Positions 6,172-32,530 of a stretch of 64,000 nucleotides of DNA are shown piece by piece. Numbering within the stretch: the first letter of the stretch is position 1; each line of letters begins with the position of its first letter. Position numbers and translations under genes: made by a program. This DNA comes from a virus. The notes beneath the pieces were generated by a model. That model searched no databases. It saw only the letters and a program-made list of their open reading frames with translations, and was not told where the DNA came from. Location: positions 45,552-109,551 of IMG/VR virus record IMGVR_UViG_3300042351_000704. One strand, 5' to 3'.

Positions 6172-6174
6172 ACT

Positions 6175-9820: not shown

Positions 9821-11260
9821 ATGGCAACATTTATACAAGGCGTTACTGATGTCTTCTCAGACAGGCTAAACTTCAAACCGGATTGGAACCGGGTTGAGCG
9901 TGGTCTTATGCTCAGAAGTGCCGCTTATACAGAAGGTGCACGTAAAGTGAAATCACTGTATGAATCTGTATTCCAGTCAGCAATGATGAGGGAAGGCAAT
10001 ATTCAGAGACGTGATAACTATCTCAAAGAAATATCCCAGGGTTTGAAGAATGCTTCTACGCTGGATCTATCTATTCTGCAAAATCAGGAGAACGCTATGC
10101 GTTTGTTTGAACCATTACAAAATGACAGACAGATCATTAAAGACATCCTGTGGACCCGTAACTACGGCAAGCAGATGAGTATGGCTGAAGAGATGAAAAC
10201 ATCCAACGATCCGGAGACCAGACGTAAGTACTGGAACACTGGTATGAAGTATTTACAATACCAGGCGGAAGACTTTCAAAAAGCAGATGACAACACCGCA
10301 CTTTCTATGGGAAGTGCACGCTACGTTCCTAACGTGGATCTGGTAACGCTTGCTAACAAGATGTACAAAGACATGGGTATCAGTGTTGAGCAGGACGTTA
10401 TGAAAGGTGGTTACATCTGGACCAAGAAGAACGGAGATCTGGCTATACCACTCACGCAGTCTATGGTAAATACAATGTTTGCCGGTGATCCTGCTATACA
10501 AGATATGTTCCGTGTACAAGCTTATGTACAACGTAAAGACTTTGTAAAAGAGAACGCTACCAAATACGGCAGTGAAGAAGCAGCAGAAAGATTTTATAAC
10601 AACGAGATCTTATCTACTGTGGGTGCTGCTCAGAAAGACCAGGTGATTAATGATTCTGAAGAAGTAAAAACACTCAGAGCCCGCAAAGCATCATGGGATA
10701 AAATAATCACTACCAGAGGTATTATACCGGATAGTGATGAGCATAAAAAATACCTGACTGATTTGGAGAAACTAAAAGAAGCTGAAAGAGCTGCTAACAT
10801 CAGTCGTGGTCAGGCTACAGTACTTACTACAGTGGACCCCAATAACCTAGACGATTTACGTACAGCTGCTGATGCTGCTGTTGTTATGGCAAGTTATTCT
10901 AGCACAGCTAACAAAATTGCTACTATGCTGGCTTATAAAGATGCCAGCGCCACTGCAAAAGCAGATCCGATTTACATGGCTAAGCTTAACAGCTCTCTTG
11001 CTCTAAACCGATCTATGGTGATGGAGAACATTCGTCACATCAATAAGATTGCTTTTATGGACGAGCAGTTAAAGAGAGGTATTAAACCAGGTAGTGGTGG
11101 TGACAAGGATAAAAAAGAAGACCAGAAAAAACAGATGCTTCAACTGGGTGAATCACTGTTTGGTAATAGTGGCATCAAACCATCCGGAACCCTGAGTGTT
11201 GGTGGTGGTGGTGGCTCACTTGATCAGCAGTTAGATGAATTTTTAGATAACGATGATTAA
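9821..11260 (+). CDS. Helical virion internal/ejection protein (479 aa)
   Basis: Long ORF, helical composition, no Cys, first gene of the block leading to the RNAP. Confidence 0.6.
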   Translation: MATFIQGVTDVFSDRLNFKPDWNRVERGLMLRSAAYTEGARKVKSLYESVFQSAMMREGNIQRRDNYLKEISQGLKNASTLDLSILQNQENAMRLFEPLQNDRQIIKDILWTRNYGKQMSMAEEMKTSNDPETRRKYWNTGMKYLQYQAEDFQKADDNTALSMGSARYVPNVDLVTLANKMYKDMGISVEQDVMKGGYIWTKKNGDLAIPLTQSMVNTMFAGDPAIQDMFRVQAYVQRKDFVKENATKYGSEEAAERFYNNEILSTVGAAQKDQVINDSEEVKTLRARKASWDKIITTRGIIPDSDEHKKYLTDLEKLKEAERAANISRGQATVLTTVDPNNLDDLRTAADAAVVMASYSSTANKIATMLAYKDASATAKADPIYMAKLNSSLALNRSMVMENIRHINKIAFMDEQLKRGIKPGSGGDKDKKEDQKKQMLQLGESLFGNSGIKPSGTLSVGGGGGSLDQQLDEFLDNDD

Positions 11261-12994: not shown

Positions 12995-15900
12995 ATGACA
13001 GAGCAAGCATTAAATACCGTTGACACTGAGTCAATCAATACTGGTTTTGATCTGGAGGGTATTAATGACCCGATGGATGCACTGGGCAACTTTGACCTGG
13101 AACAAATGGAACAGGCAGACGGAGGTGGTCCTGGAGATCCTGTAAAGAAAAAGCCTGTGACTATGGCTGATCTGAAAAAGGATTACCAGATCGATATGCA
13201 GCAATCTAAAATGTTAGCAGAGATTGGTATTCCTAAGATGGCTGATGAAAGCCGTAATAAGTTTCAGGCTGCCAGAGTAGTTGAGTTTGATGCCAAGAAA
13301 CTAAACGTAGACCGTTACCTCGGTTATGGTAAAGAAACTTTTAATAAGGTGGGATTCTCTCCCTTTATAGATAACGAAGCAAAGTTTAATCAGAACACTA
13401 CGATCTGGCAGGACTTCGGTCGTATGAGTAGTGTGTTTGGAGCACTGGCCTATGAAGGTGGTGTATCAGGCTACCGATCTATTGGTGGCATGTTAAGTGG
13501 AGATAGTTTTTTTACTCCTGATGATGAGACAGCAGAAAACTTTGCGCGTTTGCAAAGTATTGGTATGTCTACCAAAGGAGGTATTAGCGCATTTGCCAAC
13601 AACTTTGCGTTGAACTCTGCTTATACAGTGGGGATTGGTATGAGCATTATAGCAGAAGAAGCTGCTCTTTTTGGTGCTACTGTATTGACAGAAGGTGCTA
13701 TGGGTGGTCTTGCTGCCATGAGAACATCAGCCAACGCAGCGCGTATGGGTAGAGCTTTGAAGCAAGCATTCAATACCAACGCTGTACAAAATATAGCCAC
13801 TGGAGGAATGCAACTGGCTAAATCACTATCTAAAGTGGGTGATGCAAAAAATTTCTACACTGCTGTAAAAACAGGAGCTACTACATTTGGTAAAGGAACT
13901 CTTCAATTTATCAATCCACTCACCCGTACAGTAGATGATCTCACTGACATTGCCAGAGGTAGTGCCAGTGTACGTAACATGAGCAACCTGGCAAAAGCCA
14001 AACAAACCTTTGGTTCTTTTTATCGTGATGTACGTGATACCAACCTGGCCCTTTCTGAATCAAAACTTGAGGGTGGTAGTGCAAAAATAGATAAGGTGAA
14101 CGAACTGCTGGCCCGTTATGAAAACGAAAACGGACGTCCTGCAGAAGGTAAAGATCTGGAAATGATCTACAAGCAGGCAGACGATACCGGACATGGTGTT
14201 ACGGCTGTTAACTTTCCTATTATATATATGACCAACCGTGTGGTGCTTGATGGTCTGTTTAAGTTCCGTGGATTAAAAACCCTGGATGAAGCAGGTACAC
14301 TGGCTACCAAAGGAATTGGTTTTAAAAAAGGCGTAGGCTTCTACGATGACCTGGGTAAAAGCTGGTTAAAGAATGGTGCCAAAAGCCTGCTTAAGCCGAA
14401 AGCTTACATCGGAATGGGTGTAGGTTATATCAGAAGAAACCTGATGGAAGGTGTGCAGGAAAACTTGCAGAACGTTACATCAGATGCAGTGGGTGCTTAC
14501 TATGATGGTGTATACAAAGATCGTACGTTAGGTGGATTTGAATATGCAGCCGGTCATGCATGGAACGCACTGGGTAAAGAAGTCACTTCTCTACGCGGAC
14601 TGGAAACCTTTGCATCCGGATTTTTAATGGGAGGTTTTATGGGTAAAGCCCAGAATCTTTTCTTAAAAGACGTACCGGGTATATATTACCGTGTTGGACA
14701 GCCTACCAAGTATGCAGAATACAAAGCAAACAAAGCAAAGACTAGACAAGAAGCAATTGCTGGTCTGAATGAACTATACAACAACCCGATGAAATATTTT
14801 AACTCCCGTAACGAAAGTGCGGTAGTACAAAAGCATACATCGGATGTAATGAACCAGGCAGAAGTTGAGGGTGACGCCAAGACATTCCAGGATGCTAAAG
14901 ACTTAAAGATGTTTGATCACATCTTTACTGCCCTGGATAACGGCACCTATGATAATTTACTAGGTGCTTACAAGGAACTATCTAAGATGGATTCCAAAGA
15001 CCTGGCTAATTTCCTGGGTATACCTGAAAGTGAAAAGTCGTCTGAGAAACTGCAGGAGATTCTGGGTCGTGCCGAGCAGATTAAAGAACGCTACGAAACT
15101 ATCAGCTCTCAGTTTAAAAACCCATTCACACCTACCAAACTTAAAAGAGGCACTCCTGAATTCACCAGGGAAGCTATTGCATTCAGAGCTTTTGAAAGTG
15201 CCAAGAAAACAGCAATTGCTTCACAGTACAACTTTGACAGAGCGCTGGAGAGAATGAATGGCCTGTATGATAACCTGGCTTCTGATCGTCCTATTGCCAA
15301 ATCATCTGCTTCTGATATCACTACCCTGACAAACATGGGTATTTTAGATGATGAGATCAGTTTGCTGGATAAAGAGATTAAGTCTTATGATGGCAGCTCT
15401 GATAAAAAACAACAGGAGCTGGTTGATCAAAAGAAAGAAAAGCTGGACAGGCTGATGGACTACAGAGACAAACTCCGTACGCACCTGGAAAATGCTAGCC
15501 AGGCAGAAACAGAAGAGGATGGTCAGATCAAGATTAACTTTGCACAAGACACAGTGGATCCGTTAAAGGAAAGTTACAAAGCTTACCTGCGTCATATTGC
15601 AAAGGTGAATGAAGACTACATGTTTAACGACAAGGTAGATGATTCATTTGCTAAACTACTAGACTACTATGGTCTGAATCAGGATGCAGCCAATTACAGC
15701 AAGGTGGTAAATACACTGCTGGATCCAACCAATCTATATAAACATGCAGAACAGTTGAACGCAAGATTTACTGATCTGTTTACCAACAAAGAAGCAGACA
15801 TCAACGATCGCGTAGAATCTGCACAGCGTATGATGGAAATGTCTGAGTTGGTAAAAGCTTTAGCTGCTCAGGGTGTCATGCTTGAACCTGCAGAACTCGA

Positions 15901-17887
15901 AGAGTTTGTAAAATCAGGTAAGAGACCTACTACATTTATTGATGCAGCTACACTAAAAGACCTGGAGCCTGGCAGCCAAAAGTTTATTGCAGCACAGGCT
16001 ATCATGAATATTGATCAGGAGATTACTACTCCAGATGTTACACCTGCTACGGAAACTGCCCCTGCTAGTACAGCAGCTGCACCAACCGCTGCTCCTGTGG
16101 AAGCTTCTGCATCCAATATAGATGTAGGCATAGAGCCTGAGTTACAGATCAAGCTGGAGGATGCGTTTAACCAGTTCGTAGAAGAGACCGGTTCAGAGAT
16201 GACTTTTGAGGACTTTGTAAAAGTATCACCAAGAGCAGCGCGTATCAAAACAGCATTCAATAAAGGTAAAGCCCCGGCTACCAAAACTACTACTGCTCCT
16301 GTTACAGAAACAACGCCTGCAGCTGCAGAGCCTGTAGCCGCTGATACAGAGGCTGATACACAGTTTGGAGAGAATATGTTAAGTGATTTAAAAAAGCTTA
16401 ACGATGATTTACAGCAAGGTGATACACAAGAAGAACAACCTGCTTCTACACCAGAAGCTCCTGTAAACTTAAATGCAGAGTTGGTAAAGACGTTAACAGA
16501 AGAAAGAGATCAAAAGCTTTCAGATCTAATGCCTCTCTACGCTACAGCTAGAAAGACTATGATGCAACTAGGGGATGAGGCTTTAGATCCAGAAGACCGT
16601 AATATTTTAGCAGATCCTGTTAAGTATTTAGAAGGTCGCATTGCACAAGGGGAATATAGCTTACAGCTAGATATAGATAAGTTAAAAGCACTTGATACTA
16701 ATAATCCTGATAATGCTAAGGAAGCTGAAAACTTACAACGTGATATTGATACAGAAAAAATTGTTTTAGAAAAGACAAACATTAAACTTGAAAAGATAAA
16801 AGCTGTAGTAGCTGAGTATAATGATAAGATGAGTAGAATAGGAGAAACTTCTGTTGCTACTACACCTACTCAAACAACTTCTGTAGAAATATCTTCTAAC
16901 GCCAAAGGTTTAGCTGCTGCTCTTACTAACCCAACCGAGCTGGCTAAAAAGAAAGGAAACTTAACAGCGTCTTATCCTGTAACTGTACGTGGAAAAGAAT
17001 ATGCTGATGCAGAGGCTGCTTACCAGGCGCTGAAAGGAACTGCTACCAAAGATGATGGTCCGAACAGCACCTACAATCTGATGGTGGAAATCTTGAAAGC
17101 TAAGCTAGAGCAACACCCTAGGCTTGTATCAGAAATAGATAAAGCTGGTGGTGAAAGCTGGTTGTCAAAAGCTACGCACCAACCTACTAATAAAAACACG
17201 GTTTGGGAAACAGGCGGTAAGAACTGGTTTATAAAAGCTCTTACAGAGGCGTATACTAGCACTAAAGAAACTCAGACTGTAGAAACAGCACCAACTGCTG
17301 CACAAAAAACTGGTGTCCAAACGGCCCAGGATCTAATAGATTCCGTATCTTCTATTAGGGACCTTCCTGACCTTAACAGAGCAGACAGCGGACCGGTTAC
17401 TATTGACCTGATAGAGCTAGTTTCTACCGGCCAAGTGAAGAGCAAGGACATCGTACCAATGCTTGTAAAAAAGCGTGCTGAACTTCTTAAGAACATTTCC
17501 CCAAGCGATCTACAAAAAGGTGATATTGTTACATTTGTAGACGGTAGAAAAGGCTTTGTAAAATCTGTTAGCCCTACAGAAGTCAGCGTAAAAATAGCAG
17601 GCTCCCCTTCAGGTGTTGCGGAGGTAATTTCCAGCCAAGCACTATCTTCTTCTATAGCAAATGTTGAACCCGGCAAAGCAATCTCAATGGAACCAACACC
17701 AGACATTGAAGTGACTCCTCAAGACAATACCGAGGTGAAAGCTTCTCAAGATACAAAGAGTGCCTTTACAGAAAACTCTGCTGCTGTAAAAGAAGCAGGA
17801 GACAAAGCTGCTAAGGCCGCAGGTACAGATAACCTGCAGAATCTAAATAACCTCATTCAGAACATAGGATGTAAAACAGGTAACTAA
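12995..17887 (+). CDS. Large ejection protein (1630 aa) with Gly/Ala-rich hydrophobic N-region and an inserted NADAR-like domain
   Basis: Hydrophobic GA-rich helices (VGIGMSIIAEEAALFGATVLTEGAMGGLAAM), coiled coils, NADAR-like segment at about 16880-17255. Sits immediately upstream of the RNAP. Confidence 0.7.
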   Translation: MTEQALNTVDTESINTGFDLEGINDPMDALGNFDLEQMEQADGGGPGDPVKKKPVTMADLKKDYQIDMQQSKMLAEIGIPKMADESRNKFQAARVVEFDAKKLNVDRYLGYGKETFNKVGFSPFIDNEAKFNQNTTIWQDFGRMSSVFGALAYEGGVSGYRSIGGMLSGDSFFTPDDETAENFARLQSIGMSTKGGISAFANNFALNSAYTVGIGMSIIAEEAALFGATVLTEGAMGGLAAMRTSANAARMGRALKQAFNTNAVQNIATGGMQLAKSLSKVGDAKNFYTAVKTGATTFGKGTLQFINPLTRTVDDLTDIARGSASVRNMSNLAKAKQTFGSFYRDVRDTNLALSESKLEGGSAKIDKVNELLARYENENGRPAEGKDLEMIYKQADDTGHGVTAVNFPIIYMTNRVVLDGLFKFRGLKTLDEAGTLATKGIGFKKGVGFYDDLGKSWLKNGAKSLLKPKAYIGMGVGYIRRNLMEGVQENLQNVTSDAVGAYYDGVYKDRTLGGFEYAAGHAWNALGKEVTSLRGLETFASGFLMGGFMGKAQNLFLKDVPGIYYRVGQPTKYAEYKANKAKTRQEAIAGLNELYNNPMKYFNSRNESAVVQKHTSDVMNQAEVEGDAKTFQDAKDLKMFDHIFTALDNGTYDNLLGAYKELSKMDSKDLANFLGIPESEKSSEKLQEILGRAEQIKERYETISSQFKNPFTPTKLKRGTPEFTREAIAFRAFESAKKTAIASQYNFDRALERMNGLYDNLASDRPIAKSSASDITTLTNMGILDDEISLLDKEIKSYDGSSDKKQQELVDQKKEKLDRLMDYRDKLRTHLENASQAETEEDGQIKINFAQDTVDPLKESYKAYLRHIAKVNEDYMFNDKVDDSFAKLLDYYGLNQDAANYSKVVNTLLDPTNLYKHAEQLNARFTDLFTNKEADINDRVESAQRMMEMSELVKALAAQGVMLEPAELEEFVKSGKRPTTFIDAATLKDLEPGSQKFIAAQAIMNIDQEITTPDVTPATETAPASTAAAPTAAPVEASASNIDVGIEPELQIKLEDAFNQFVEETGSEMTFEDFVKVSPRAARIKTAFNKGKAPATKTTTAPVTETTPAAAEPVAADTEADTQFGENMLSDLKKLNDDLQQGDTQEEQPASTPEAPVNLNAELVKTLTEERDQKLSDLMPLYATARKTMMQLGDEALDPEDRNILADPVKYLEGRIAQGEYSLQLDIDKLKALDTNNPDNAKEAENLQRDIDTEKIVLEKTNIKLEKIKAVVAEYNDKMSRIGETSVATTPTQTTSVEISSNAKGLAAALTNPTELAKKKGNLTASYPVTVRGKEYADAEAAYQALKGTATKDDGPNSTYNLMVEILKAKLEQHPRLVSEIDKAGGESWLSKATHQPTNKNTVWETGGKNWFIKALTEAYTSTKETQTVETAPTAAQKTGVQTAQDLIDSVSSIRDLPDLNRADSGPVTIDLIELVSTGQVKSKDIVPMLVKKRAELLKNISPSDLQKGDIVTFVDGRKGFVKSVSPTEVSVKIAGSPSGVAEVISSQALSSSIANVEPGKAISMEPTPDIEVTPQDNTEVKASQDTKSAFTENSAAVKEAGDKAAKAAGTDNLQNLNNLIQNIGCKTGN

Positions 17888-17889
17888 AC

Positions 17890-20800
17890 ATGGCTTGTAG
17901 ATTATCAGAAGATCAAATATCCGCATTATTCGGAGCTGTTCACGGTGACGTGATTGCTTCTAAGAACCGTGACGATAAGTTTAATGCATTACAAGCTATC
18001 AGAGACTTGTACAAAAAGTTAGTGGACGCTGGTGCCGAACCAGTAAATGCCCTAGATTATATCCAGCATATGCCTAGTATGCTATTGCTTAGCTATGCAA
18101 TGTTTGAAGACAGCAAAGCGCACATGCGTAAAAGCCAGGTGAACCTTTCTGAGCTGGATCAAATGGATGCAGACTTTACAGCCGATATACAAAACGTTGC
18201 CAAGTTCATCATGCCCGCTCAAGCCGGAGCTGAACTGGTAAAAGAGATCATAGAAGAAACTAATCCGTCTACCGGTGTACAACCTACCGAGGTGTATACA
18301 CAAGTAGAAGACCTGGACATACAAAAGAAAAAAGAGTTCTATCAATCAGAAACTTCTTTTGTGGCAGCTCCTGAAACAGCGCTGGCTGTATTTAACCAGG
18401 AAGCTAAAAACTATGATGGTGCTACCGCTGAACAAAACATCCCGGACCCTGATCCTATCAAGCGTGCTTACTATGCTGTGGTAAGAAAGCTGAACAACCT
18501 GATGAGCCAGTACAATCGCGAAACAGCGGACAACCTGACCCTGGGTAATGTAACCGGTATTTATTACAGACTGGTACCTGCCAGCAAGGTTGAATTTGAA
18601 GACCTGCAGCAATCAGATAAAGATTACTACTCTAAAGACGATAACCCGAACGCTCCGTTTGCAAAGACTTCCCAGCAAAAGATGGAAGCCCGCACTACAG
18701 GAGATGAAACCTATCTGGTATTCACCGACAAGGAAGGTAACATCCTTCGCTTCAATGAAGAAGGTGTACCGGTAGATAAGGCAAGTGGTGGTATGGTGGC
18801 ATACGGTAAACTCCGTAGACCTTACACACCAGCCAGAACCAACGAGGCTAAAGGCCAGGTGGCCGGTCAACGTATGGTGGGTCGTGTACAAACTGTCAAT
18901 GACCTTGTTCGTAAAGGACTGGGTACAATGGAAGAGCTTACCAAAGAGCGTGAGCAGGAAATGGACATCTTACAAAAGTCCAGAGAGTATGTGGTAAACA
19001 ATCCGGATGAAGTGTTACTGTTCTCTGTTATACCAGGTAAGAACGGTTACATAAAAGAAGACTTTTCTGCACCTAATCCTATCAGCTCTATCGAGCTCAC
19101 TGATGGCTTCAAACCGTTTGTTTCTAACCAGGATGCTGGTACACTGATTAAAGGTGGCGTATACTTCACTGTTCCTGGCTACGAGTTTCCATTACTGATC
19201 CGCAGACCAAAGTTTCAAAACATTCCGAACCTGGTAGATAACCTGGCGGATATGCTTTTTGGTTCAGAGGCTTCTAATAATGACAAGATCAAAACCGTTA
19301 AGCAGTTTACTTTTTCTAATGATACCAACGTGTATGAAGTAGAAGGCAAGCTGATGTTCAAACAAAACGGTAAAGAGCTGGAGGTAACACCAGAAAACAA
19401 AGAGGCGTTTATCAATACGCTGAATGGTCAAACCATTAACATCAATAAAGACCTGGTTGGTACAACGATTAACATGCCTGTCAACATGGACGGCAAGGTG
19501 ACTTTGCAACCAGAGCGTTACAATAACTTTTTATCAGATAACTTCTTTACGTTCCTGGCTAAAAACGATGATGGTAAGATTGTTAGCCTGAATGCATATA
19601 ATGTAATTGCTCCAACCGAGCAAACACAAACCAAGTTATTTGGTGAGGTGGCAACACCTGAAACCACTGCAAAAGAGTCTGCTTTAGAACAAGCTACTCC
19701 TTCTGATAACAGCATTGCTGATTTTAAGAGTTTACTGGAAAGCACAGACTTCAGTTTAAAGAAGTCTATGATGCTGGATAGCACCGCTACTCAGGAGCAG
19801 ATTGATGCTGCAGAGAAATGGTACAACAGTTCTCCTTACAGTAAGGTGGTGCCGTTTAGCGTTATGTTCAATGTAGTGAACTCAAATGCACTGGCTGAAT
19901 TCACAGTATCGGGCATTACACTTTACTCCGGATCTAACTTTACAGATCTTTACCACGAAGCATGGCACGCGTTTTCTCAGATGTTCTTAACCAAGGACCA
20001 GAAGAAAGCGTTGTACAACGAAGCACGTAAACTTACCGGCAGCTTCAAAACAGTAAGCGGGCAAACAGTTAAATATAGTGCTGCTTCTGACATGCAACTT
20101 GAAGAGTTTATGGCAGAAGATGTACGTAAGTATATTCTGTCTGATCGTCAGAACGTAATCAACGGACGCCCGGTACGTAATACATTATTCAGAAAGATCT
20201 TTACTTTTTTAAAGCAACTATTCAGCGGGTATAGTTTAAAAGACATTGCTGCTGACCGTACGGCTGTAAAAGGCATACAGGAGCTTTATGATAAGTTTTA
20301 TGTAGGTAATGTCAATGACTATACTCCTTCTATCAGGAACGTACAATTTGGTATTCTTAACAAAGGGGTAGAAGCGTTAGACACTGCTACAGACCAATCA
20401 CTGAACTACCAGGATTCTATGACCATGGTAGAAACCATTGACTCATTGATGGCATCGATTATCTCTGATGCAGGCAAGAGTGTGGGTTCTATATTTACCC
20501 GCCCTGAACTGATGGGTCCTTTATACAAGACCATAAAGAGTAAGTTACAGGATATAAAAAACAATACACCTGCTGAACAAGCCAATGTAAATCGTATCCT
20601 GGACTTTGCTTTAGCTAACTGGGGAGATTTCTCTAAGGTGGCTAATGGCGAAGAAGCTACTGGTATGATTGCTTTCCATAAGAAGAGAAGCTCTTACTTC
20701 ACGTTTGAAGACAGGATGGCTGAGATGGATGGCTTTGACCAGAAAGAAAATGAGCAGGCTGCAGACCAAAAAGATGCAGACAACCCACTGGCTAAAACCG

Positions 20801-26800: not shown

Positions 26801-27228
26801 ATAATAACAACATCATGTTTGTATATCCAAACTTCAAGGATACTATGGGTATCTCTGCTAAGATGGATAAGGCAGACAACACGATCGCTTTCCCGCTGAC
26901 TACAGATGGCAAGACTGCACTTACAGATGAGAACTTTGAAGAGAATGCCAAGAAGATTAATGACGCTATTACAGCCATAGAAACTCAGTTTGAAAATGGC
27001 AACGAGGTAGCGTTTCCAGAAGCAGGTATTACCATGGTAAATGGCAAAGATCTGCTGGAAAATGCACCACGTACCAAGAGTTATATGGCTACTGAATTAT
27101 ACAAAAGATTAAACTACCTCACTCCAGGTATGCAGTATGACGCTAATGTGCGTACTGAACTGCAGAAGAACCAGGAAATCACCGATGAACAGGTGGAGGA
27201 GTTTATGAGAAAATGCTTTGGAGAATAA
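17890..27228 (+). CDS. Virion-packaged crAss-like DNA-dependent RNA polymerase with N-terminal zincin domain (3112 aa)
   Basis: GVRIPVQG...SGSDFDIDKL (DFDID at 24316-24330), EGDAQGWI and GWVDIEKD motifs as in phi14:2 gp66-type RNAPs. HEAWH...LEEFMAE zincin at 19954-19968. Confidence 0.93.
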   Translation: MACRLSEDQISALFGAVHGDVIASKNRDDKFNALQAIRDLYKKLVDAGAEPVNALDYIQHMPSMLLLSYAMFEDSKAHMRKSQVNLSELDQMDADFTADIQNVAKFIMPAQAGAELVKEIIEETNPSTGVQPTEVYTQVEDLDIQKKKEFYQSETSFVAAPETALAVFNQEAKNYDGATAEQNIPDPDPIKRAYYAVVRKLNNLMSQYNRETADNLTLGNVTGIYYRLVPASKVEFEDLQQSDKDYYSKDDNPNAPFAKTSQQKMEARTTGDETYLVFTDKEGNILRFNEEGVPVDKASGGMVAYGKLRRPYTPARTNEAKGQVAGQRMVGRVQTVNDLVRKGLGTMEELTKEREQEMDILQKSREYVVNNPDEVLLFSVIPGKNGYIKEDFSAPNPISSIELTDGFKPFVSNQDAGTLIKGGVYFTVPGYEFPLLIRRPKFQNIPNLVDNLADMLFGSEASNNDKIKTVKQFTFSNDTNVYEVEGKLMFKQNGKELEVTPENKEAFINTLNGQTININKDLVGTTINMPVNMDGKVTLQPERYNNFLSDNFFTFLAKNDDGKIVSLNAYNVIAPTEQTQTKLFGEVATPETTAKESALEQATPSDNSIADFKSLLESTDFSLKKSMMLDSTATQEQIDAAEKWYNSSPYSKVVPFSVMFNVVNSNALAEFTVSGITLYSGSNFTDLYHEAWHAFSQMFLTKDQKKALYNEARKLTGSFKTVSGQTVKYSAASDMQLEEFMAEDVRKYILSDRQNVINGRPVRNTLFRKIFTFLKQLFSGYSLKDIAADRTAVKGIQELYDKFYVGNVNDYTPSIRNVQFGILNKGVEALDTATDQSLNYQDSMTMVETIDSLMASIISDAGKSVGSIFTRPELMGPLYKTIKSKLQDIKNNTPAEQANVNRILDFALANWGDFSKVANGEEATGMIAFHKKRSSYFTFEDRMAEMDGFDQKENEQAADQKDADNPLAKTEQELREDYGANVFERKGNELSVRELASNEIVYLIKSLPQLDKQGKPVLNALGVPKLVDFNRTWGIVINTVAGSNTTNQMYGKLLDAATRFPELKTLVARLGNPMDYKETKHWPYMKMWINFFRDFSVYRVPVKEGRLINSDGKFRFEFSEVNPQFRQVEKTFGAQFQSQTNNPYVTKSAAGNQLNTVKVMQDFPYSQIFGKDYTIINQDKAMDFLKAIGLYMTDNGAIREQIEKNYSAVSYLHKAVKDMAAKKTMPSNPVEALRKVEATSIRRLLTIEAADSGKYSNNAVLNVNGDVIFDLSLNNSITKLLNDLNDASKDYSMMQLPHLQHLDYRRNPFAKYSIWLNSMFSIPSGKMVDQKNINQRIKTDTNYASGMVTLDIVNLDGIKSVQERIAGGQSVEAGIKTTNLDPVSKFILDLHTMLSQGVMELPRHASKSTAYGVSVSKINSPFNTDKTRHLYISPGHFADKTRGLTYTVDLMLPKIAAEMERIAMVNQGVGANIPGFNQRGKEFMMFDDILSDATKTELKGMVSADDSLSPISTPEIKQKITADIQSYLNKLVTENTNLFNEMPFISDELLHSSRDGKSDIASYIRKDLGIAVGDDQQAMLRDVAIKAFTVNALIHNMETISVLYGDLAMYNHDKEEFHKRNAAIGSTGRIFASDEAVNQFIDNLGGAYARKIGANQRSFDGVLRSVVFKDNNVSSVYYNEYLEALTGKYGAEKAASILKPYKKMTEGDAQGWITFDSYRKLSLLEGAWSEKQNELYNKVVAGEQIDPSEISEFFPTKKFQYAGPVKTDKLHVQAFHKFSLVPLVPSLVKGTNMETLHDNLTKQGVDYALFESGSKMATLTANGTPDSLYENDDYTNRNIKPWNEGDATYTPNDVFIQYLKDQVDIQSTWKNKTIFSTQLRKLIINDTFKQGMALAGFEGLVKDFEGLLDTLQENKKKELLKEVGWTENASGELSGSVKNLMEFVIREMERLELPEHDIDYVREGVQNGTFTDLSFSLNAEMIEKMLNNIVVKRLVKQKMNGEQLVQVSGAGFERPGFVKATEEDAVKYGTNDLPTYRPGKGKDGKTSAMKVKISMKGDYYKLLNLKHNDGEKIGTRERLNEMIKDDQWLDKSDHRKMITMVGVRIPVQGLNSMEFMEVYEFLPEEAGSIIIPPAEIVAKSGSDFDIDKLTIFQPNIKTAKDGVPSFISANNTKGTENKIIEKIREILEHPDNFDALIRPNDTDLVKGVADELAGENIQGYDPLAVKTGEKRSGKGKQVISPTRVLEPRYNLYKHESNNVGKKTLGIGAVDNAYSSIFKRVGARLEKSYTHYKREDGQINFEKEPQIRPINIRMDHNTMTESGKEYISLSDINTVTMDKVSDLIGQLMNGWVDIEKDAWIFNINGNNVAGPVLLFLLETGVDFKTAAYFVSQPLVVDYIKEIYKVESPFYNAANPSSPVDSEKGLRKFNVKKDFYIKYQMGALTKKGNLNNELLYGAIEDYNKNRTYDVASLQKVIKSKDRDSDDAIAGLLHFIELEELTKQLTNIKLTVNVDTAPSKSLFAATERLDKIEGLEYVDAVPKSTINNILTDSPISSFLVQKFQLAILKPLMKLRGDVEVNAFLLRKIQARNYTRAFATAEKFVAAFHNDLPLYMMQNYLKSVDLKNLKEYKGLAIEQAVPVKGVTLRQGAFVRDGVMYVDMAQIEDDFENNHYTGPVYKSQGLATLDPGTFSMGTKFQNLQEYAHFVIEREYLRSVTPVGNASREVYEQKIANRSLERTFNFYHMLKAPGVSIADQFLDIKTKYGKELTDQYMIFSELGYVNEGAKVDEEGNVSQGNNKKLRTLKLNSARLDTDLINVLHENLVRLADPMTVKVDNPAQNAEISKFFNRMIIAEYLRAGITKSGDNLAKILPKETLLKLMAEPLQELSNKQNKTELLDQYYDQFISLWDSKNSSTRLKYRNYLKRSDMEGTSPATVRTLEDVVEGEGLNVNAQDLMVYPALPGGASATKMLANNNNIMFVYPNFKDTMGISAKMDKADNTIAFPLTTDGKTALTDENFEENAKKINDAITAIETQFENGNEVAFPEAGITMVNGKDLLENAPRTKSYMATELYKRLNYLTPGMQYDANVRTELQKNQEITDEQVEEFMRKCFGE

Positions 27229-27244
27229 ATAAAGAACATACCCT

Positions 27245-30200
27245 ATGTTAACATGCCCTAACAAAAGCTCGGCAGAGTGGAAACTATTAGTCAATGAAGT
27301 GGGAGAAAGAGAAGCTTTCAGAGCCTATCTCGCTAAAGGAGATGGATCGATTCCTACTGTCCCTATGATGGAAATACCTACCGAGCAGGAACAAAAGACC
27401 CAGATAGGTCAGAACATTGCGCGTGCTATGGCAGATACTATAGCGCAGAACATGGGTATTCCCTATAGCCTGGTAACACCTGTACAGGCAGCTGATTTAA
27501 CCAAAGACTCTACCAATCCGTGGAAAGGAGAAAAAGCATTCTTCTTTAACGGCAAGGTGTATTTTACAGAAGGTGGTTTTACTACAGAAAATGTGCTGCA
27601 TGAATATGCTCACCCGATGGTTGCAGCGGTGGCTATCCAAAACCCTACGTTGTTTAATAACTTATACAAGCAATTAGAATCTACACCAGAAGGTGCTAGC
27701 ATTATACAAGAAGTAAAAGATTTATACCCGGAGGCGGAAACTACACCTGGTAAGATACAGGAAGAAGCGCTGGTAAGAGCCTTAAGTGCACAGGCACAAA
27801 ATAAGATCAATGGTGTAAAGAGCTCTACAGGCTTTACTGATTTTTTAAATAAGCTGGTGTTTGCATTTAAGCAACTGTTACGTAAAGTGTTTGGTACAAC
27901 CGTAAAGGTGGAGAAGCTTTCTACAGATACAACACTGAGCGAGCTGGCAGAAATGCTTAGAGGAGATAAGTTTGATATTCCTACAGATATTATTTCAGAG
28001 CAGGACTATGTAGATTACCTGCGTGACATCAGCAACTTTACCAAAGAACTAAACAATGTGGAGTTTAGTGGCATTTCTTCTTCTGTAAGACGTTTCTATG
28101 ATGTAGTAACTAACCATATCAGGCGTATACAGGAAAACAAGAACTACACAGAAGCCCGTAAGTTCCTGGTAGATGAAACAGGACGCGGTCAGTTACAGGA
28201 ATTAAAAGCTACACTCTCTAACTCAGAGATCGATCAGCGTTTGGCTGAGATCTTTGACCAGGTAACCCTGGATGCTAAAACTACACAAAGCTTTGTACAC
28301 TCTATTCTGCGTTTACAAAAGCTGACTGATAGTATATTCAATCATACCAAAGAGCTGGCTAAGCAAGGCTCCTCTAAAGAGGTGATCGGTAATATATTTT
28401 ATTACGACATGTTGGTGCGTAACTGGAACAAGTACATCAGTGAGACTGTGGATCACCTGAGTGACAAAGGTCTTAACCCGAACTCGGAGTTTGGTCGTGT
28501 GCTTTCCGGTATTCAAAACACTATCGCTCAAACAGACCGTACGATCTCTAAGATTTATGCAGACAATGTCAATGATGTGATATATGAATCACTGGAGCCG
28601 CTTGCAAAAGACATAGACCGTTACTTTAGTGAATACATTACACAACTGGAAGCCAAGAATGCAGATCCTAAAAAGATTGCTGAAGTGAAAGACCAGTATG
28701 AAAAAATGAAAATTACCAAGGATAAGCTCAAAGACATGATCAGTGGTAAGCTAGGTGATACTAACCAGTACTCTGCTTTACTTGAAGCTTACACCAACTC
28801 TCCCGATCCGGTGATTGGTGGTTTTGCTATGTTTATTAAGAATGCGTACAATGATGTAGACACACAGGCTCAGCGTAACATGAATGACTTTGCCCGTGAC
28901 CTGGAGCCGTTACTAATGGCAGCAGGATACAGCCGTACTAATTATAGTAAGCTGATGTCAAAGCTTGTCACTACAGAGAAAGTACCTTATATAGATGAGA
29001 AAGGAAACTTTGCTACCCGTGAAGTGTTTGCCTTTAAAGATAAGTTTAATGACTTCACTTCAGAGAGTGCCGAGTTAAAGCATAAGCTTGACCTGGCAAT
29101 TGATAATGGAGACACTGCACTGGCAGATCAACTGCTTCGTGATATGCGTAAGTTGCGCAGGGACTACTTCCACCAGGAATATGTACCGGCTTACTACGAG
29201 CGTGAGAAGATCTATGACTCTGAAATCGGTCGTGAAACGTTTAGGCGTAAGCAAACAATCTTAAACAAAGTGGCTGAACTGGATGCACAGAGTTATGATG
29301 ATGATTCCCTGGATGAGATTGCAGAAGAGAAAAAACTTTTATGGAGAGAGTATGCTCAGCTTGCTAGTCTCACTGACCTGAATGGTAATCAAAAGCAGGG
29401 TCGTGAACTGGAGATAGCCAAGACAGAAAAAGAATATAGAAAAGCCAGCCGTGAGTTTTTTGAATGGGTGCCTATTAAGGGTTTATTTGAATCTAACCTC
29501 AGACGTTTTGAACAAGGACTGGTAGATAATAATATTGATCCTGCTTCTGATGAATACAAAGAGAAGCGTGATAAGTGGATCAAGAATAACACCGTGATTG
29601 CTTATACACAAGAGTTCTTTGAAGAGCGTAACCAGGTGCTGGAAGACCTGAAAGAACTAATGAGCGGACTGAGCGATCAGATCCGTAGTGCTGTGGATTC
29701 TTCTGAAGAAATGGAAGCAATGCTGGATATTGCTACAGGATTTCGTGACCAGGATGGTCAGGTGATTGGTACCGATATATCAGAAACTAGTAAAGAAAAA
29801 GTAAGAAAGCTGCAGAAAGCTACTATTGATAAGCGTAACTCAATGGCAGGCTTTAGTGGTCTGACCAGGGAAGAGATGGATGAACTCAGCGGTTATTTCC
29901 AAAAGATTGTAGCCAGGGAAAAACTTACAGCCGAAGAGCGTAACCGTATGGATGAGTTGATGGAGCGTAAAAGTAACCTAGGTGTAGATAAATTTACCAA
30001 AACAGAAATGCAGGCATTGTATGCCAAGCTGGGTGGTTTACAAAGTAAGGAAGCAACAGACTACTATGTAGATATTGTAAACAACTACATGGAAAAGATT
30101 GGTCAGCCGTTAATAGATAATGAATCAGCTGGTAATCTTTTACAGCCAGAACTATATGTCAAGCTGTTTAGTGAAAGTCCGGAGTTTGAGCAGTGGTTTA

Positions 30201-32530
30201 AAGAAAACCATATTGCCAAAGAAGTATATGATAGCGCTAAGGGTACAACAAAAATGACGTATGAGCGTCTGTTTATCTGGAACCGTACGCGTCCTAATAA
30301 CGAAGATCATTATGAAAAGATCACACTCTCTGATGGAGAAGTGGTGATGGGTAAACCAAACAATTCTTACTTCTACCGTTCTGTAAAAAAAGAACACCGT
30401 ACCGAGCGTAAGGTGGGGGTTACTGTAGACAACCGTGGTAACTGGTTACCAAAAACACTTGAAGAAGGAGCGGTAGATGATAAATATTACAACCAGGATT
30501 ATGAAAAGCTACGCAGGGAAGACCCGGCTGCTTTTGCTGTACTGGAGAAGATGAAAGAATACCACCTGAAGTTCCAGGAAGGGTTTGCTAAAGAGAGTAA
30601 ACTGTACATGCAGATACCTCGTTACCGTAAACCTTCTTTAGAAACACTAAAGAGTGGTGGAGTGACAAGTAAATGGGAAGAGTGGTCTACGCGTGTCAAG
30701 CAATTCTTTACTAAAGCACCCGATGATGTACAGGATGGATTAAACTTCAAGCCTGAGCAGCTGATATATGCTGACATGTTTGATGAAGAGATCAACAAGG
30801 TTCCTATAACAGGACTTTATGCGCTGGACCAAAGTCAGGTGAGTATGAACATTGCTGACAGTATGTTGCGTTATATGCACTCTGGTCTGAAGCAGCGTAA
30901 ACTAATTGAGCTAAATCCGATGGCACAAGCTTTAAAGAAAGCAGTGAGCAGCCCGGACAGTGCGATTAAGGACATGACCAAGATTAACAAGTGGCAGTAT
31001 CAGAACACAGGTATAAAGAGTCATCTTACCAAAAAAGGTATGAGCGTAAGAGCAAAAGCTATCAATAATTTATACGAGCGTGAATTTGAGGGCAAGGCCC
31101 TAGCAGGTATGTTCAGTGACTCTCCTGGAATTCAGAAGTTCATTAGCGGTCTTTTAAAAATGTCAAGCAGTGCTATGTTCGCGTTGAACATTTTACCGAG
31201 TGCTGTTAAGAACCGCCAGTCTGCTATTGTGCAGTTACAGAATGAAGCAACTGCAGGCAGATATATAAACTGGAATTCATACCTGCGTGGTAAAGGTCGT
31301 GCTGTATCTATGATGGCGGCTTACTCGTTCCAGTTATATAAGACAGGTAACCGCAGCATGGATGTACAACTTTTGCAGGTATTTGATCCTACACAGGATA
31401 TATTAAAGTCAACCTTTGGTGATGCACACGCCAGCGATATGGGTGGCCAGTTTGGTCGCTCGGTAGCTGCAGATGCGGCAAGCCTTGGGTTTTTAATGTC
31501 TACTCGTAAGTTCTTAGAAGTAGAATCAGTAGTGGAACTCTTTAGTGGTATGATGCATCACGTAAAAGTGGAGCAAACTATTAACGATGAGACTAACGAG
31601 ATCCGTTATATTGATGCGTTTGAAGTAGTCAATGGCCAGCTGGAACTCAAAGCTGGTATTGATAAAGAGTGGGCACCAGGTGGTGCAAAATTCAACGAGT
31701 TTAAAAATCGTGTACATGAACTGGGCAACCGTCTGTATGGTACCTATGCACGTATGGATCAGCCGGAAGCGCAGCGTTACGTTGCATTCAAAGTGGCCTC
31801 TTTCTTGAAGCGTTTCTTTACCTCTATGTTAATGAACCGTCTGGGCGCTACCCGTGGTAGTGCAGCTTTAGGTGGTGTAAGCACTGGTTATTACAGATCG
31901 GTATTACAAGTAGCTAAAGGCTTTGCTAAGTACGGGGTGAAGAACTACTACTGGATGAGTGATGAACAACGTTCGAATCTGCTAAAGTTCACTTCTGACA
32001 TGGCTCACCAGATGGCGCTGTTGTTTATACTGACTGCTGTGTTTGGATACAACGACAGTGATCCGGACCGTTTTGAAAAAATGAGACAGCGTAGTGGAGC
32101 ACTAAATGAAGAAGACTTTAACCTGCAAGGTTGGTTATTCAACCATGGACTGGTGGCAACACTGGGTACACTAACGGAAACAGAAACCTTTGGTAGCTGG
32201 AGTCCGGTGACTATGGGTGCTGATGGTGATCTAGATGTTGCAATCCTGGGACGTAACTGGAAAACACTAAAGAATACAGCCGGCCAGATGCTTGATCCTA
32301 GAACACTGTATGCTACAACGATTAAAAGACAACTGGAACTCTTAGGTCACGTGAGTCAGTTTATTGATGATGATCCTGCAGGCTTTTACAAGAAAGATGC
32401 TGGTCCTTACTGGTTCCAGAAAGAAGGATCTCCTAAGTTCTTAAATGATGCGGGTGGTATTTTAGGCTTCACCGGATCGCAAGTGGATCCAGTGAAGGCA
32501 CTAAAAGGTATGGAATTGGGCCGTAGATAA
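27245..32530 (+). CDS. Large ejection protein (1761 aa) with N-terminal zincin-like domain
   Basis: MLTCPNKSSAEWKLLVNEVGE N-terminus, VLHEYAHP...QEEALV (27599-27613), helical body, hydrophobic segment near the C-terminus. Confidence 0.75.
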   Translation: MLTCPNKSSAEWKLLVNEVGEREAFRAYLAKGDGSIPTVPMMEIPTEQEQKTQIGQNIARAMADTIAQNMGIPYSLVTPVQAADLTKDSTNPWKGEKAFFFNGKVYFTEGGFTTENVLHEYAHPMVAAVAIQNPTLFNNLYKQLESTPEGASIIQEVKDLYPEAETTPGKIQEEALVRALSAQAQNKINGVKSSTGFTDFLNKLVFAFKQLLRKVFGTTVKVEKLSTDTTLSELAEMLRGDKFDIPTDIISEQDYVDYLRDISNFTKELNNVEFSGISSSVRRFYDVVTNHIRRIQENKNYTEARKFLVDETGRGQLQELKATLSNSEIDQRLAEIFDQVTLDAKTTQSFVHSILRLQKLTDSIFNHTKELAKQGSSKEVIGNIFYYDMLVRNWNKYISETVDHLSDKGLNPNSEFGRVLSGIQNTIAQTDRTISKIYADNVNDVIYESLEPLAKDIDRYFSEYITQLEAKNADPKKIAEVKDQYEKMKITKDKLKDMISGKLGDTNQYSALLEAYTNSPDPVIGGFAMFIKNAYNDVDTQAQRNMNDFARDLEPLLMAAGYSRTNYSKLMSKLVTTEKVPYIDEKGNFATREVFAFKDKFNDFTSESAELKHKLDLAIDNGDTALADQLLRDMRKLRRDYFHQEYVPAYYEREKIYDSEIGRETFRRKQTILNKVAELDAQSYDDDSLDEIAEEKKLLWREYAQLASLTDLNGNQKQGRELEIAKTEKEYRKASREFFEWVPIKGLFESNLRRFEQGLVDNNIDPASDEYKEKRDKWIKNNTVIAYTQEFFEERNQVLEDLKELMSGLSDQIRSAVDSSEEMEAMLDIATGFRDQDGQVIGTDISETSKEKVRKLQKATIDKRNSMAGFSGLTREEMDELSGYFQKIVAREKLTAEERNRMDELMERKSNLGVDKFTKTEMQALYAKLGGLQSKEATDYYVDIVNNYMEKIGQPLIDNESAGNLLQPELYVKLFSESPEFEQWFKENHIAKEVYDSAKGTTKMTYERLFIWNRTRPNNEDHYEKITLSDGEVVMGKPNNSYFYRSVKKEHRTERKVGVTVDNRGNWLPKTLEEGAVDDKYYNQDYEKLRREDPAAFAVLEKMKEYHLKFQEGFAKESKLYMQIPRYRKPSLETLKSGGVTSKWEEWSTRVKQFFTKAPDDVQDGLNFKPEQLIYADMFDEEINKVPITGLYALDQSQVSMNIADSMLRYMHSGLKQRKLIELNPMAQALKKAVSSPDSAIKDMTKINKWQYQNTGIKSHLTKKGMSVRAKAINNLYEREFEGKALAGMFSDSPGIQKFISGLLKMSSSAMFALNILPSAVKNRQSAIVQLQNEATAGRYINWNSYLRGKGRAVSMMAAYSFQLYKTGNRSMDVQLLQVFDPTQDILKSTFGDAHASDMGGQFGRSVAADAASLGFLMSTRKFLEVESVVELFSGMMHHVKVEQTINDETNEIRYIDAFEVVNGQLELKAGIDKEWAPGGAKFNEFKNRVHELGNRLYGTYARMDQPEAQRYVAFKVASFLKRFFTSMLMNRLGATRGSAALGGVSTGYYRSVLQVAKGFAKYGVKNYYWMSDEQRSNLLKFTSDMAHQMALLFILTAVFGYNDSDPDRFEKMRQRSGALNEEDFNLQGWLFNHGLVATLGTLTETETFGSWSPVTMGADGDLDVAILGRNWKTLKNTAGQMLDPRTLYATTIKRQLELLGHVSQFIDDDPAGFYKKDAGPYWFQKEGSPKFLNDAGGILGFTGSQVDPVKALKGMELGRR

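Follow-up and report, generated by a model that had tools for sequence, protein, structure and literature searches.

How can three giant proteins of a crAss-like phage, one of them a predicted virion RNA polymerase, share only four cysteines, and why do these lie at the ends with which the proteins face each other in gene order? The window, i.e. the whole stretch of DNA analysed here, comprises 64,000 nt (positions 45,552-109,551 of IMG/VR record IMGVR_UViG_3300042351_000704) and encodes five proteins of 7,555 aa in total at 9821-32530. In an earlier note the cysteines of these proteins had been counted by eye; all of its counts and coordinates proved correct on recounting by script. Four Cys were found in the 7,555 aa, where ~89 would be expected at the rate of 1.18% observed in control proteins of the same phages. 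The features are as follows; the three largest proteins are referred to as A, B and C.

9821..11260, + strand: 479-aa protein upstream of the proposed chain, 0 Cys, in the position of crassvirus cargo protein C1/C2
11271..12992, + strand: 573-aa protein upstream of the proposed chain, 0 Cys
12995..17887, + strand: protein A, 1630 aa, proposed first link, 1 Cys
17870..17872, + strand: codon TGT of A Cys1626, fifth residue from the C-terminus (..NIGCKTGN)
17890..27228, + strand: protein B, 3112 aa, proposed middle link, predicted virion RNA polymerase, 2 Cys
17896..17898, + strand: codon TGT of B Cys3, N-terminus MACRL..
19954..19968, + strand: HEAWH motif (HExxH, zincin-like) of B, residues 689-693 (motif scan)
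24316..24330, + strand: predicted catalytic motif DFDID of B, residues 2143-2147 (motif scan)
26785..27090, + strand: DUF7831 (PF25176), residues 2966-3067 near the C-terminus of B (Pfam, E 4.4e-7, 30.2 bits, cut-off 27)
27214..27216, + strand: codon TGC of B Cys3109, fourth residue from the C-terminus (..RKCFGE)
27245..32530, + strand: protein C, 1761 aa, proposed last link, 1 Cys
27254..27256, + strand: codon TGC of C Cys4, N-terminus MLTCPN..

Cysteine content and identity of the predicted cargo proteins

The outer ends of A and C hold no Cys in the window (checked by script). That all four Cys lie no more than 5 residues from the four ends with which A, B and C face inward has a chance probability of ~24 x (5/6503)^4, roughly 8e-12 (about 1e-11). 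As A, B and C are read in different frames and are separated by spacers of 2 nt (A/B) and 16 nt (B/C), they are separate genes. The junction between the 573-aa protein and A has Cys on neither side, like 49 junctions of related loci (see below); the 479-aa protein has counterparts with a matching MATF/YI.G N-terminus upstream of A in related loci, which are Cys-poor as well.

Residues 1485-2197 of B match PDB 6VR4, the virion RNA polymerase (vRNAP) of phi14:2 (E 1.8e-24). D2143, F2144, D2145 and D2147 are invariant in an alignment of 32 homologs (alignment A1), and DFDID is also found in phi14:2 gp077 (1361) and crAss001 gp50 (1483); by homology we assign B as a crAss-type virion RNA polymerase of the two-barrel kind with a DFDxD catalytic motif. 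H689, E690 and H693 of the zincin-like motif, whose region is N-terminal in B, are likewise invariant in alignment A1. The A-family profile matches crAss001 gp47 (E 1.6e-13) and the C-family profile matches crAss001 gp49 (E 2.3e-32) and phi14:2 gp076 (E 2.9e-23), which identifies A, by profile, as an ortholog of gp47 over its N-terminal and middle part, and C as an ortholog of gp49 and gp076. C contains an HEYAH motif at residues 119-123. Searches of the region by megablast against GenBank phages gave no match, PHROGs gave none for A, B, C or the two upstream proteins, and in Pfam DUF7831 on B was the sole match, with none for the 479-aa protein. Since gp47, gp49 and gp50 have been detected in the crAss001 virion by mass spectrometry (PMC10172136), and the phi14:2 block proteins are annotated as virion proteins on the same kind of evidence, membership in the Crassvirales RNAP cargo block predicts that A, B and C are cargo, packed and then injected. 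In the AF2 model of A, a long terminal helix is followed by an unstructured tail that holds Cys1626; in that of B, residues 1-6 form a coil followed by a confident helical domain. Confidence is low for both tails.

Terminal cysteines across homologs, loci and gene boundaries

Of 120 B homologs (identity from 99% down to 30%, length 3,000-4,700 aa), about 115 carry Cys at both ends, at residue 3-6 from the N-terminus and 1-7 residues from the C-terminal end, and most of these proteins have no other; nearly all B homologs have a Cys 1-8 residues before the C-terminus. A C-terminal Cys is found in 79 of 80 A homologs from the database, along with 5 interior Cys in 144,442 residues; an N-terminal Cys occurs in 45 of 46 C homologs and a C-terminal one in none of the 46. 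Cys3 of B is invariant in alignment A1 and Cys is the sole invariant column in the N-terminal 350 aa of B (30 homologs). The column of A Cys1626 is invariant in a 20-sequence alignment (alignment A2), and in the C-terminal 300 aa of A, too, no column other than Cys is invariant (20 sequences, alignment A4).

When related loci were searched for, the N-terminus of B as query returned none and the C-terminal query two. Adjacent large ORFs in 76 IMG/VR loci form 168 non-redundant junctions: both facing ends have Cys in 119, neither has one in 49, and 0 are discordant, these counts being phylogenetically non-independent and the adjacent termini physically linked on the DNA. Interior Cys make up 24 of 498,003 residues (0.005%) in the proteins of related loci compared with 1.18% in 134 control proteins, a purge of ~250-fold. 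The terminal Cys all lie within 10 residues of an end, at varying positions (3-6 from the N-terminus, 1-10 from the C-terminus). An N-terminal Cys is always absent from the first protein of a chain, as is a C-terminal Cys from the last; sets of 2, 4 and 6 terminal Cys occur in relatives with chains of 2, 3 and 4 proteins, respectively. The types of tail and head motif co-vary, with ..CFGE accompanying ML.CPN and ..ESKNCN accompanying MACSIIRN; we do not count this as evidence, because the two ends are ~20-60 nt apart on the DNA and would be transferred together anyway.

Natural gene fusions lack the pair at the fused junction. An A+B fusion of 4,470 aa (P0097) has its sole Cys as the last residue, and the pair is absent at the fused junction of two others (L054, 4,665 aa; FpV4 gp32, 4,287 aa). 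A+B fusions retain exactly the Cys of the B C-terminus and the C N-terminus, while B+C fusions retain exactly those of the A C-terminus and the B N-terminus; crAss002 gp33 and its counterpart in crAssphage ZA, both B+C fusions, have no C-terminal Cys. Conversely, splits and inserted link proteins carry a Cys pair at the new junctions. In L014, a protein of 583 aa bears Cys at its N- and C-terminal ends and corresponds to 1-563 of a C that is not split (40% identity, E 6e-117); in L055, one of 396 aa corresponds to 1-349 of unsplit C proteins, whose interiors are free of Cys. Inserted links are e.g. a 506-aa protein with the pair (L077) and a 252-aa protein whose two Cys are both terminal, with no others (L025). 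These variants fall on separate branches of the B-core tree, from which FpV4, crAss002 and crAssphage ZA are absent as they lie below the core-domain threshold.

The cultured crassviruses phi14:2, crAss001, DAC15, crAss002 and FpV4 all obey the terminal-Cys rule. The orthologous set gp078-gp077-gp076 of Cellulophaga phage phi14:2 (g067-g066-g065; gp66 = PDB 6VR4) shows the same pattern as the window: the single Cys of gp078 (1,797 aa) is its last residue, gp077 (vRNAP, 2,180 aa) has Cys3 and a penultimate Cys, and gp076 (1,421 aa) has a single Cys at residue 3. The same holds for the orthologous crAss001 set gp47-gp50-gp49 (Bayfield 2023, PMC10172136). In crAss001 and DAC15 the pattern is intact although A is encoded on the strand opposite to B and C, whereas A, B and C of the window are all on the + strand. 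Gut isolates tolerate 1-9 interior Cys. Some smaller cargo proteins (crAss002 gp30, a 795-aa protein of crAssphage ZA, FpV4 gp30) have a terminal Cys and no evident partner.

In crAss001 the A/B boundary appears to lie ~700-900 residues further along the homologous sequence, and the Cys pair has moved with it. The zincin HExxH motif is found in gp47 near the C-terminus (HEAFH 2157) and not in B, whereas in the window it is in B. The placement derives from a blastp match (E 1e-5) with the shared HExxH and from the A profile, which ends at about residue 2120 of gp47; the full B profile did not detect gp47. The shift is supported, if not precise. Judged from all these sequences, the Cys pair tracks protein boundaries rather than homologous positions and survives a broken gene order, and the terminal-Cys rule is kept across the whole phage order, far beyond chance.

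Proposed pairing of neighbouring proteins and its probable chemistry

The earlier note had proposed to test whether terminal-only Cys is conserved in syntenic crAss-like homologs and whether it is lost at the junctions of fused genes. Both tests came out in favour of its idea: the pattern is kept to ~25% identity and in cultured crassviruses, and natural A+B and B+C fusions are without the pair. On this comparative evidence, a head-to-tail tether from the C-terminus of A to the N-terminus of B and from the C-terminus of B to the N-terminus of C is strongly supported. The tether would be end-to-end and is probably a disulfide, joining A-B-C into a thread of ~6,500 residues. Of the earlier reading, the pairing of neighbours is thus the part that conservation and the fusions uphold; the disulfide chemistry, the time of its formation, the ordered passage through the tail and the reductive release are what we infer beyond it.

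The note had known of no description of such a mechanism, which needs correction in one respect: a single C-to-N disulfide between two ejection proteins is known from cyanopodophage A4, where cryo-EM found gp27 Cys1715 bonded to gp26 Cys5 in the virion (PNAS 2025, PMC12002296). In Anabaena phage A-4L, gp27 has a single Cys (Cys1715 of 1,717 aa, 3 residues from the C-terminus), and gp26, the product of the next gene, has a single Cys at residue 5. A, B and C of the window show the same signature of one Cys per facing end with interiors that are (nearly) Cys-free, and A is likewise predicted to end in a long helix followed by the Cys. However, A4 is a T7-like podophage with one link between two proteins and no RNA polymerase in the chain, and its bond has been interpreted as a stabiliser of a folded ring rather than as an instance of a conserved chaining rule (PMC12002296). 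The window has two putative links (up to three in relatives), found order-wide, tracking gene fusion and fission and known here from sequences. A, B and C gave no blastp match below E 0.05 and no profile match with gp27 and gp26 of A4; the resemblance is an analogy of mechanism, not family membership. In the literature on crassviruses we found no description of terminal-Cys chaining, and the publications on the crAss001 and phi14:2 cargo blocks mention neither terminal Cys nor a cargo disulfide. What appears new with respect to A4 is a multi-link rule, conserved across crassviruses and following gene boundaries.

The A4 precedent also lends itself to a different use of the bonds. The disulfides may be real and serve assembly, locking a folded cargo complex (pre-ejectosome) and fixing a 1:1:1 ratio, and be broken or irrelevant at ejection. 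Above the A4 portal, the bonded pair is indeed part of a folded pentameric ring, such a role has been proposed for gp27-gp26 (PMC12002296), and the boundary-tracking data would fit equally well. A role in assembly alone, however, explains neither the exclusive C-to-N links nor the confinement of the Cys to 10 residues from the ends nor the ~250-fold interior purge, and in crAss001 the cargo faces constrictions under 50 Å, for which partial unfolding is thought to be needed for tail passage (PMC10172136). We consider this reading unlikely.

The comparative data show that two thiols act as a pair, and a metal ion between them, or some other thiol chemistry, could form the tether instead of a disulfide, which would be workable in anoxic habitats. 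As no conserved His, Asp or extra Cys accompanies the pair, Cys being the sole invariant column, and as the one solved case with this signature (A4) is a disulfide, such chemistry is quite improbable. Slightly less credible still is that the terminal Cys act singly or in another topology, e.g. an internal bond in B combined with one between A and C, homodimers, or anchors to portal, capsid or DNA. The unpaired terminal Cys in some cargo proteins of other lineages would agree with this, but the Cys-free outer ends of first and last proteins, the joint gain and loss of facing Cys at each junction (0 of 168 discordant) and the Cys left in A+B and B+C fusions, which fit neighbour pairing without re-pairing and nothing else, all speak against it. 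Chance, composition or a DNA-level junction signal that creates Cys codons, with gene adjacency as its one argument, can practically be dismissed given the ~1e-11 for this window, the conservation to 25-30% identity, its persistence in two phages whose A and B genes are not neighbours (crAss001 and DAC15), and the varying Cys positions, which imply no fixed nucleotide motif.

Further candidates were tried and rejected. A lipoprotein lipobox was discarded as there is no signal peptide and the Cys is at residue 3-6; a split intein with trans-splicing, as no intein-like sequence was found; a single polyprotein made by read-through or frameshifting, as the frames differ and the pattern persists with genes on opposite strands; and a single shared Cys4 metal site, as the number of terminal Cys in relatives is 2, 4 or 6 and not always four.

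A proposed cargo thread and its release

Taken together, we regard as reasonably likely the whole explanation in which A, B and C form a cargo thread through terminal disulfides that is ejected by threading and released by reduction. The three giant cargo proteins would be packed into the capsid and later injected, each inward-facing end carrying one Cys in a short flexible tail. Before bonding, the C-terminal helix of one protein would probably dock non-covalently on the N-terminal domain of the next, as in phage A4. After assembly, outside the reducing cytoplasm, Cys1626 of A would bond to Cys3 of B, and Cys3109 of B to Cys4 of C. Such C-to-N linkage would preserve a single N-to-C polarity with side stubs of at most ~10 residues, so that A, B and C would be, topologically, one unbranched polypeptide of ~6,500 residues. 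Partly unfolded, the thread would cross the narrow channel of portal and tail, each protein pulling the next, at 1:1:1; any other disulfide would form a loop or branch that could not be threaded, which would be why interior Cys are purged. Once inside the host, whose cytoplasm is reducing, the links would break and the polymerase would be set free. Since recombinant vRNAP of phi14:2 shows activity by itself in DTT, the polymerase would be functional when reduced and released.

Many crassviruses inhabit the anoxic gut, where it is not evident what would oxidise thiols to disulfides. Among the window ORFs, a simple scan for CxxC motifs found no thioredoxin-like WCGPC or CPYC. Disulfides in purified virions could arise on air exposure. 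Virions of crAss001 hold other disulfides; in the crAss001 maps the cargo is not resolved and no cargo disulfide is reported (PMC10172136).

Large virion-internal proteins that exit via portal and tail, either before the DNA or together with it, are also known from T7 (gp14/15/16), P22 (gp7/16/20) and N4 (virion RNA polymerase), for which the publications consulted report no covalent head-to-tail chaining. In some crAss-like phages the three proteins occur as fused 'polyprotein' forms (Drobysheva et al., bioRxiv 10.1101/2020.03.07.982082), with the same modules in one continuous chain, joined by peptide bonds that are assumed to be cleaved. Unlike the junctions in the window, their fused junctions have no Cys, which suggests that the Cys pair is a reversible substitute for the peptide bond and that the fused and split forms are equivalent. 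More broadly, and as a tentative proposal, crassviruses and, independently, at least one cyanopodophage may use terminal disulfides as such substitutes, so that a cargo thread is pulled in fixed order and uncoupled by the reducing cytoplasm, in a modular system whose rule is obeyed by fusions, homing-endonuclease splits and effector-like inserts.

Among phages of the human gut, crassviruses rank first in abundance. The findings bear on how podophage-like viruses such as these transfer megadaltons of protein, including an RNA polymerase of 250-350 kDa, through a channel a few nm wide, and the terminal-Cys rule turns this into a testable mechanism of covalent concatenation and redox release. Such a chain would explain the near-total absence of Cys from about 7,500 cargo residues and predicts the order of the proteins and their 1:1:1 stoichiometry. 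The rule may also serve as a sequence-only marker for members of cargo chains and for the correction of start codons in metagenomic crAss-like genomes.

Cysteine content of the giant cargo proteins

A scripted recount of the translations upheld every number in the cysteine tally of the earlier note: the five consecutive + strand proteins encoded from 9821 to 32530 sum to 7,555 aa and contain four cysteines, all located in three consecutive giant cargo proteins, referred to here as A, B (the virion RNA polymerase) and C, while the two proteins upstream of A contain none.

12995-17887, + strand: A, 1630 aa; sole cysteine Cys1626 (codon TGT at 17870), 5th from the end
17890-27228, + strand: B, 3112 aa; only Cys3 (17896) and Cys3109 (TGC at 27214, 4th from the end)
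27245-32530, + strand: C, 1761 aa; sole cysteine Cys4 (27254)

The three genes lie in different frames and are separated by spacers of 2 nt and 16 nt. Other proteins of this phage and of related phages contain 1.18% cysteine, so that roughly 89 would be expected in 7,555 aa. According to our own arithmetic, the probability that four cysteines all fall within 5 residues of the four inward-facing ends by chance is ~8e-12; the terminal-cysteine pattern in the window is confirmed as real and far from chance.

B matches the sequence of the crystallised phi14:2 virion RNA polymerase (6VR4; E 1.8e-24) and carries a DFDID catalytic motif (residues 2143-2147) and a HEAWH zincin-type motif (residues 689-693), both invariant in 32 homologs. 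Profiles built from homologs match crAss001 gp47 in the case of A (E 1.6e-13) and both crAss001 gp49 (E 2.3e-32) and phi14:2 gp076 (E 2.9e-23) in the case of C, and mass spectrometry places relatives of A, B and C among the virion proteins (phi14:2 annotation; crAss001, PMC10172136). Taken together, these matches identify A, B and C as the RNA-polymerase cargo block of a crAss-like phage. The window forms the 3'-terminal 64 kb of an IMG/VR virus record 109.5 kb long, and the closest relatives are uncultured; megablast against GenBank phages gave no match at the DNA level, and the best tblastn match has ~25% identity.

Just upstream of the cysteine-free cargo, a large protein of 1194 aa (6175-9759, + strand) contains four cysteines at 849, 873, 885 and 909 (spacing 24-12-24). 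It occupies the place of the muzzle protein gp44 in crAss001 and has no match in Pfam or PHROG.

Terminal cysteines in homologs and cultured phages

Among the 120 top-ranking homologs of B (identity 99% to 30%), ~115 have a cysteine at residue 3-6 plus one 1-7 residues from the end, and most lack any further cysteine; the few that deviate seem to be either truncated gene models or a fusion. The C-terminal cysteine is present in 79 of 80 A homologs and an N-terminal one in 4 of 80, and these four align with A over just one short domain (8-9% coverage). C homologs have the N-terminal cysteine in 45 of 46 cases and a C-terminal one in none of the 46. We also surveyed non-redundant junctions of adjacent large ORFs in 76 loci with flanks, obtained by a profile-guided scan of IMG/VR: 119 of the 168 junctions have cysteines on both sides, 49 on neither side and none is discordant (counts that, like those of the homologs, are not phylogenetically independent). 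In these loci only 24 interior cysteines occur in 498,003 residues. The N-terminal cysteine is always found at position 3-6, and the C-terminal one lies 1-10 residues (mostly 1-3) from the end. Cysteine is the sole invariant column both in the N-terminal 350 aa of B (30 sequences; 24% mean identity) and in the C-terminal 300 aa of A (20 sequences; 22% identity). AF2 modelling of B 1-350 (pLDDT 77) gives a coil for residues 1-6 and then a confident helical domain; for the C-terminal 300 aa of A (pLDDT 70) it gives a long terminal helix (piece residues 245-293) and, after this, a seven-residue unstructured tail holding the cysteine. The models thus predict that both thiols are exposed and lie outside any internal fold or site.

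The cultured phages display the same arrangement. In phi14:2, gp078 ends in its only cysteine, the polymerase that was crystallised (gp077) has Cys3 and a penultimate cysteine, and gp076 has Cys3 only. In crAss001, single cysteines are found in gp47 (3 from the end) and gp49 (Cys5), and gp50 has Cys5, Cys1334 and one 9 from the end; DAC15 follows the crAss001 pattern. As gp47 is encoded on the strand opposite gp50-gp49 in crAss001 and DAC15, the pattern is independent of gene adjacency or any junction DNA motif. Interior cysteines in chain proteins number 0-1 in isolates from aerobic habitats (phi14:2, FpV4) and 1-9 in gut isolates (six genomes), a tentative trend that agrees with a disulfide-linked thread.

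Some smaller cargo-region proteins contain a single terminal cysteine 8 or 2 residues from the C-terminus or at residue 5 (crAss002 gp30, crAssphage ZA 4880-7267, FpV4 gp30). They have no obvious partner terminus, and may be further links or homodimers. Close CX7-8C pairs, which could form small loops, are the only cysteines of C1-type cargo proteins (crAss001 gp45 Cys390/398; phi14:2 gp080 Cys369/378; DAC15_59 211/219 and 273/281).

Fused, split and shifted protein boundaries

The strongest argument for pairing between neighbours, based on sequence comparison, is that the cysteine pair tracks the protein boundaries. The check proposed in the earlier note, whether homologs with fused genes lose the cysteine at that junction, gave the predicted answer. 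The natural A+B fusion P0097 has its last residue as sole cysteine; the 4,665-aa A+B protein of locus L054 lacks N-terminal and interior cysteines; and FpV4 gp32 (4,287 aa) has a single cysteine 2 from the end, and gp33 begins MAC. In crAss002 and crAssphage ZA, where B and C are fused, A retains its C-terminal cysteine, and the fusion begins MSC at the presumed true start and has no C-terminal cysteine. These in-frame MSC starts lie downstream of the annotated ones (L082:15774-28049, crAssphage ZA 'RNAP subunit'; L083:15945-28682, crAss002 gp33); the annotated starts should probably be moved downstream by 21 and 32 codons, respectively, and the MSC starts would fit the family rule.

Conversely, split and inserted proteins bring a cysteine pair with them. 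A 583-aa protein in L014 with cysteines at both ends aligns over its full length to residues 1-563 of an unsplit C (E 6e-117), and a 396-aa protein in L055 corresponds in alignment to residues 1-349 of C proteins that are unsplit and lack interior cysteines. The chain of L077 includes a 506-aa link protein and that of L025 a 252-aa link whose only two cysteines are residue 3 and the last residue. In L032, B is 6,381 aa long (L032:7386-26531) and contains a tandem pair of RNA-polymerase-like modules, with residues 773-3179 and 5137-5923 each matching B of the window; its only cysteines are residue 5 and the last residue, and the following ORF (L087, reverse strand; 1,298 aa) begins MSC. As the variants covered by the polymerase-core tree sit on separate branches, several independent events obey the rule. 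The A/B boundary itself appears to have moved between lineages, and each lineage carries the pair where its own boundary falls: the zincin-motif region is close to the C-terminal end of gp47 in crAss001 vs residue 689 of B in the window, and the starts of crAss001 gp50 and phi14:2 gp077 correspond to about profile position 700-750.

Free-standing GIY-YIG homing-endonuclease genes (PF01541) are located exactly at junctions between chain genes in three loci:

L055:21952-22545, E 2.6e-7
L059:12361-13050, E 4e-11
L077:10024-10641, E 1e-7

In L055 and L077 this gene adjoins the split-off N-terminal piece of C, and the new ends carry the cysteine pair. Furthermore, the last 26 residues of the L014 link (L014:19021-20772) are 77% identical to the last 26 of B in its sister phage L076, which has no link protein (L076:10001-19534); the tail preceding C is retained regardless of which protein bears it.

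A putative disulfide chain and its alternatives

We propose a C-to-N disulfide chain, A-S-S-B-S-S-C, that would keep one polarity with short stubs only, so that A, B and C would topologically be one thread; selection would act against interior cysteines, since these would give rise to loops or branches, and cytoplasmic reduction would free the parts. The head-to-tail tether is strongly supported by the comparisons of sequences, and ordered ejection and reductive release are plausible. The same disulfides might instead serve assembly and stoichiometry rather than ordered threading.

As to the chemistry of the link, a metal or other thiol bridge is conceivable; a disulfide is the likely one, by analogy to the cyanopodophage A4, where cryo-EM shows a disulfide joining gp27 Cys1715, at the end of the C-terminal long helix, to gp26 Cys5 (PMC12002296). 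In the Anabaena phage A-4L genome, gp27 (1,717 aa) and gp26 (1,114 aa) have exactly one cysteine each, i.e. the same terminal signature as the window proteins, although no homology is detectable. Thus one experimental case ties this signature to a real inter-protein disulfide. Other pairing topologies can be envisaged, but the fusion patterns are compatible with neighbour pairing alone, and a single Cys4 clasp is excluded by chains with 2, 4 or 6 terminal cysteines.

The structural atlas of crAss001 describes disulfides in tail and portal-vertex proteins, lists gp45, 46, 47, 49 and 50 as cargo and states that partial unfolding is needed, with no mention of cargo cysteines or a cargo disulfide (PMC10172136). 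The phi14:2 polymerase paper, in which active enzyme was purified in DTT, mentions neither cysteine nor disulfide, and full-text literature searches turned up no account of such a chain for crassvirus cargo. In crAssphage ZA, two genes annotated as thioredoxin (L082:30221-30514 and 31231-31500) are found on the other strand, several kb downstream of the block encoding the RNA polymerase, and may be relevant to how the redox state of the chain is controlled; when the window was scanned for plain CxxC motifs, none was thioredoxin-like.

Chain proteins of relatives contain varied accessory Pfam domains, including HATPase_c_3 (PF13589, in long C forms), PF18760, LysM, PDDEXK_1 (PF12705), 2OG-Fe(II) oxygenase (PF13532) and AAA_30/helicase (PF13604), found in homologs P0023, P0052, P0061, P0096, P0100, P0164, P0193, P0204-P0208, P0232 and P0245. 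This suggests that the chain also delivers assorted enzymes. The crassvirus tether would extend to several links, and across a whole phage order, a type of bond observed a single time before, in a podophage that is not related; the hypothesis is directly testable in cultured phages.
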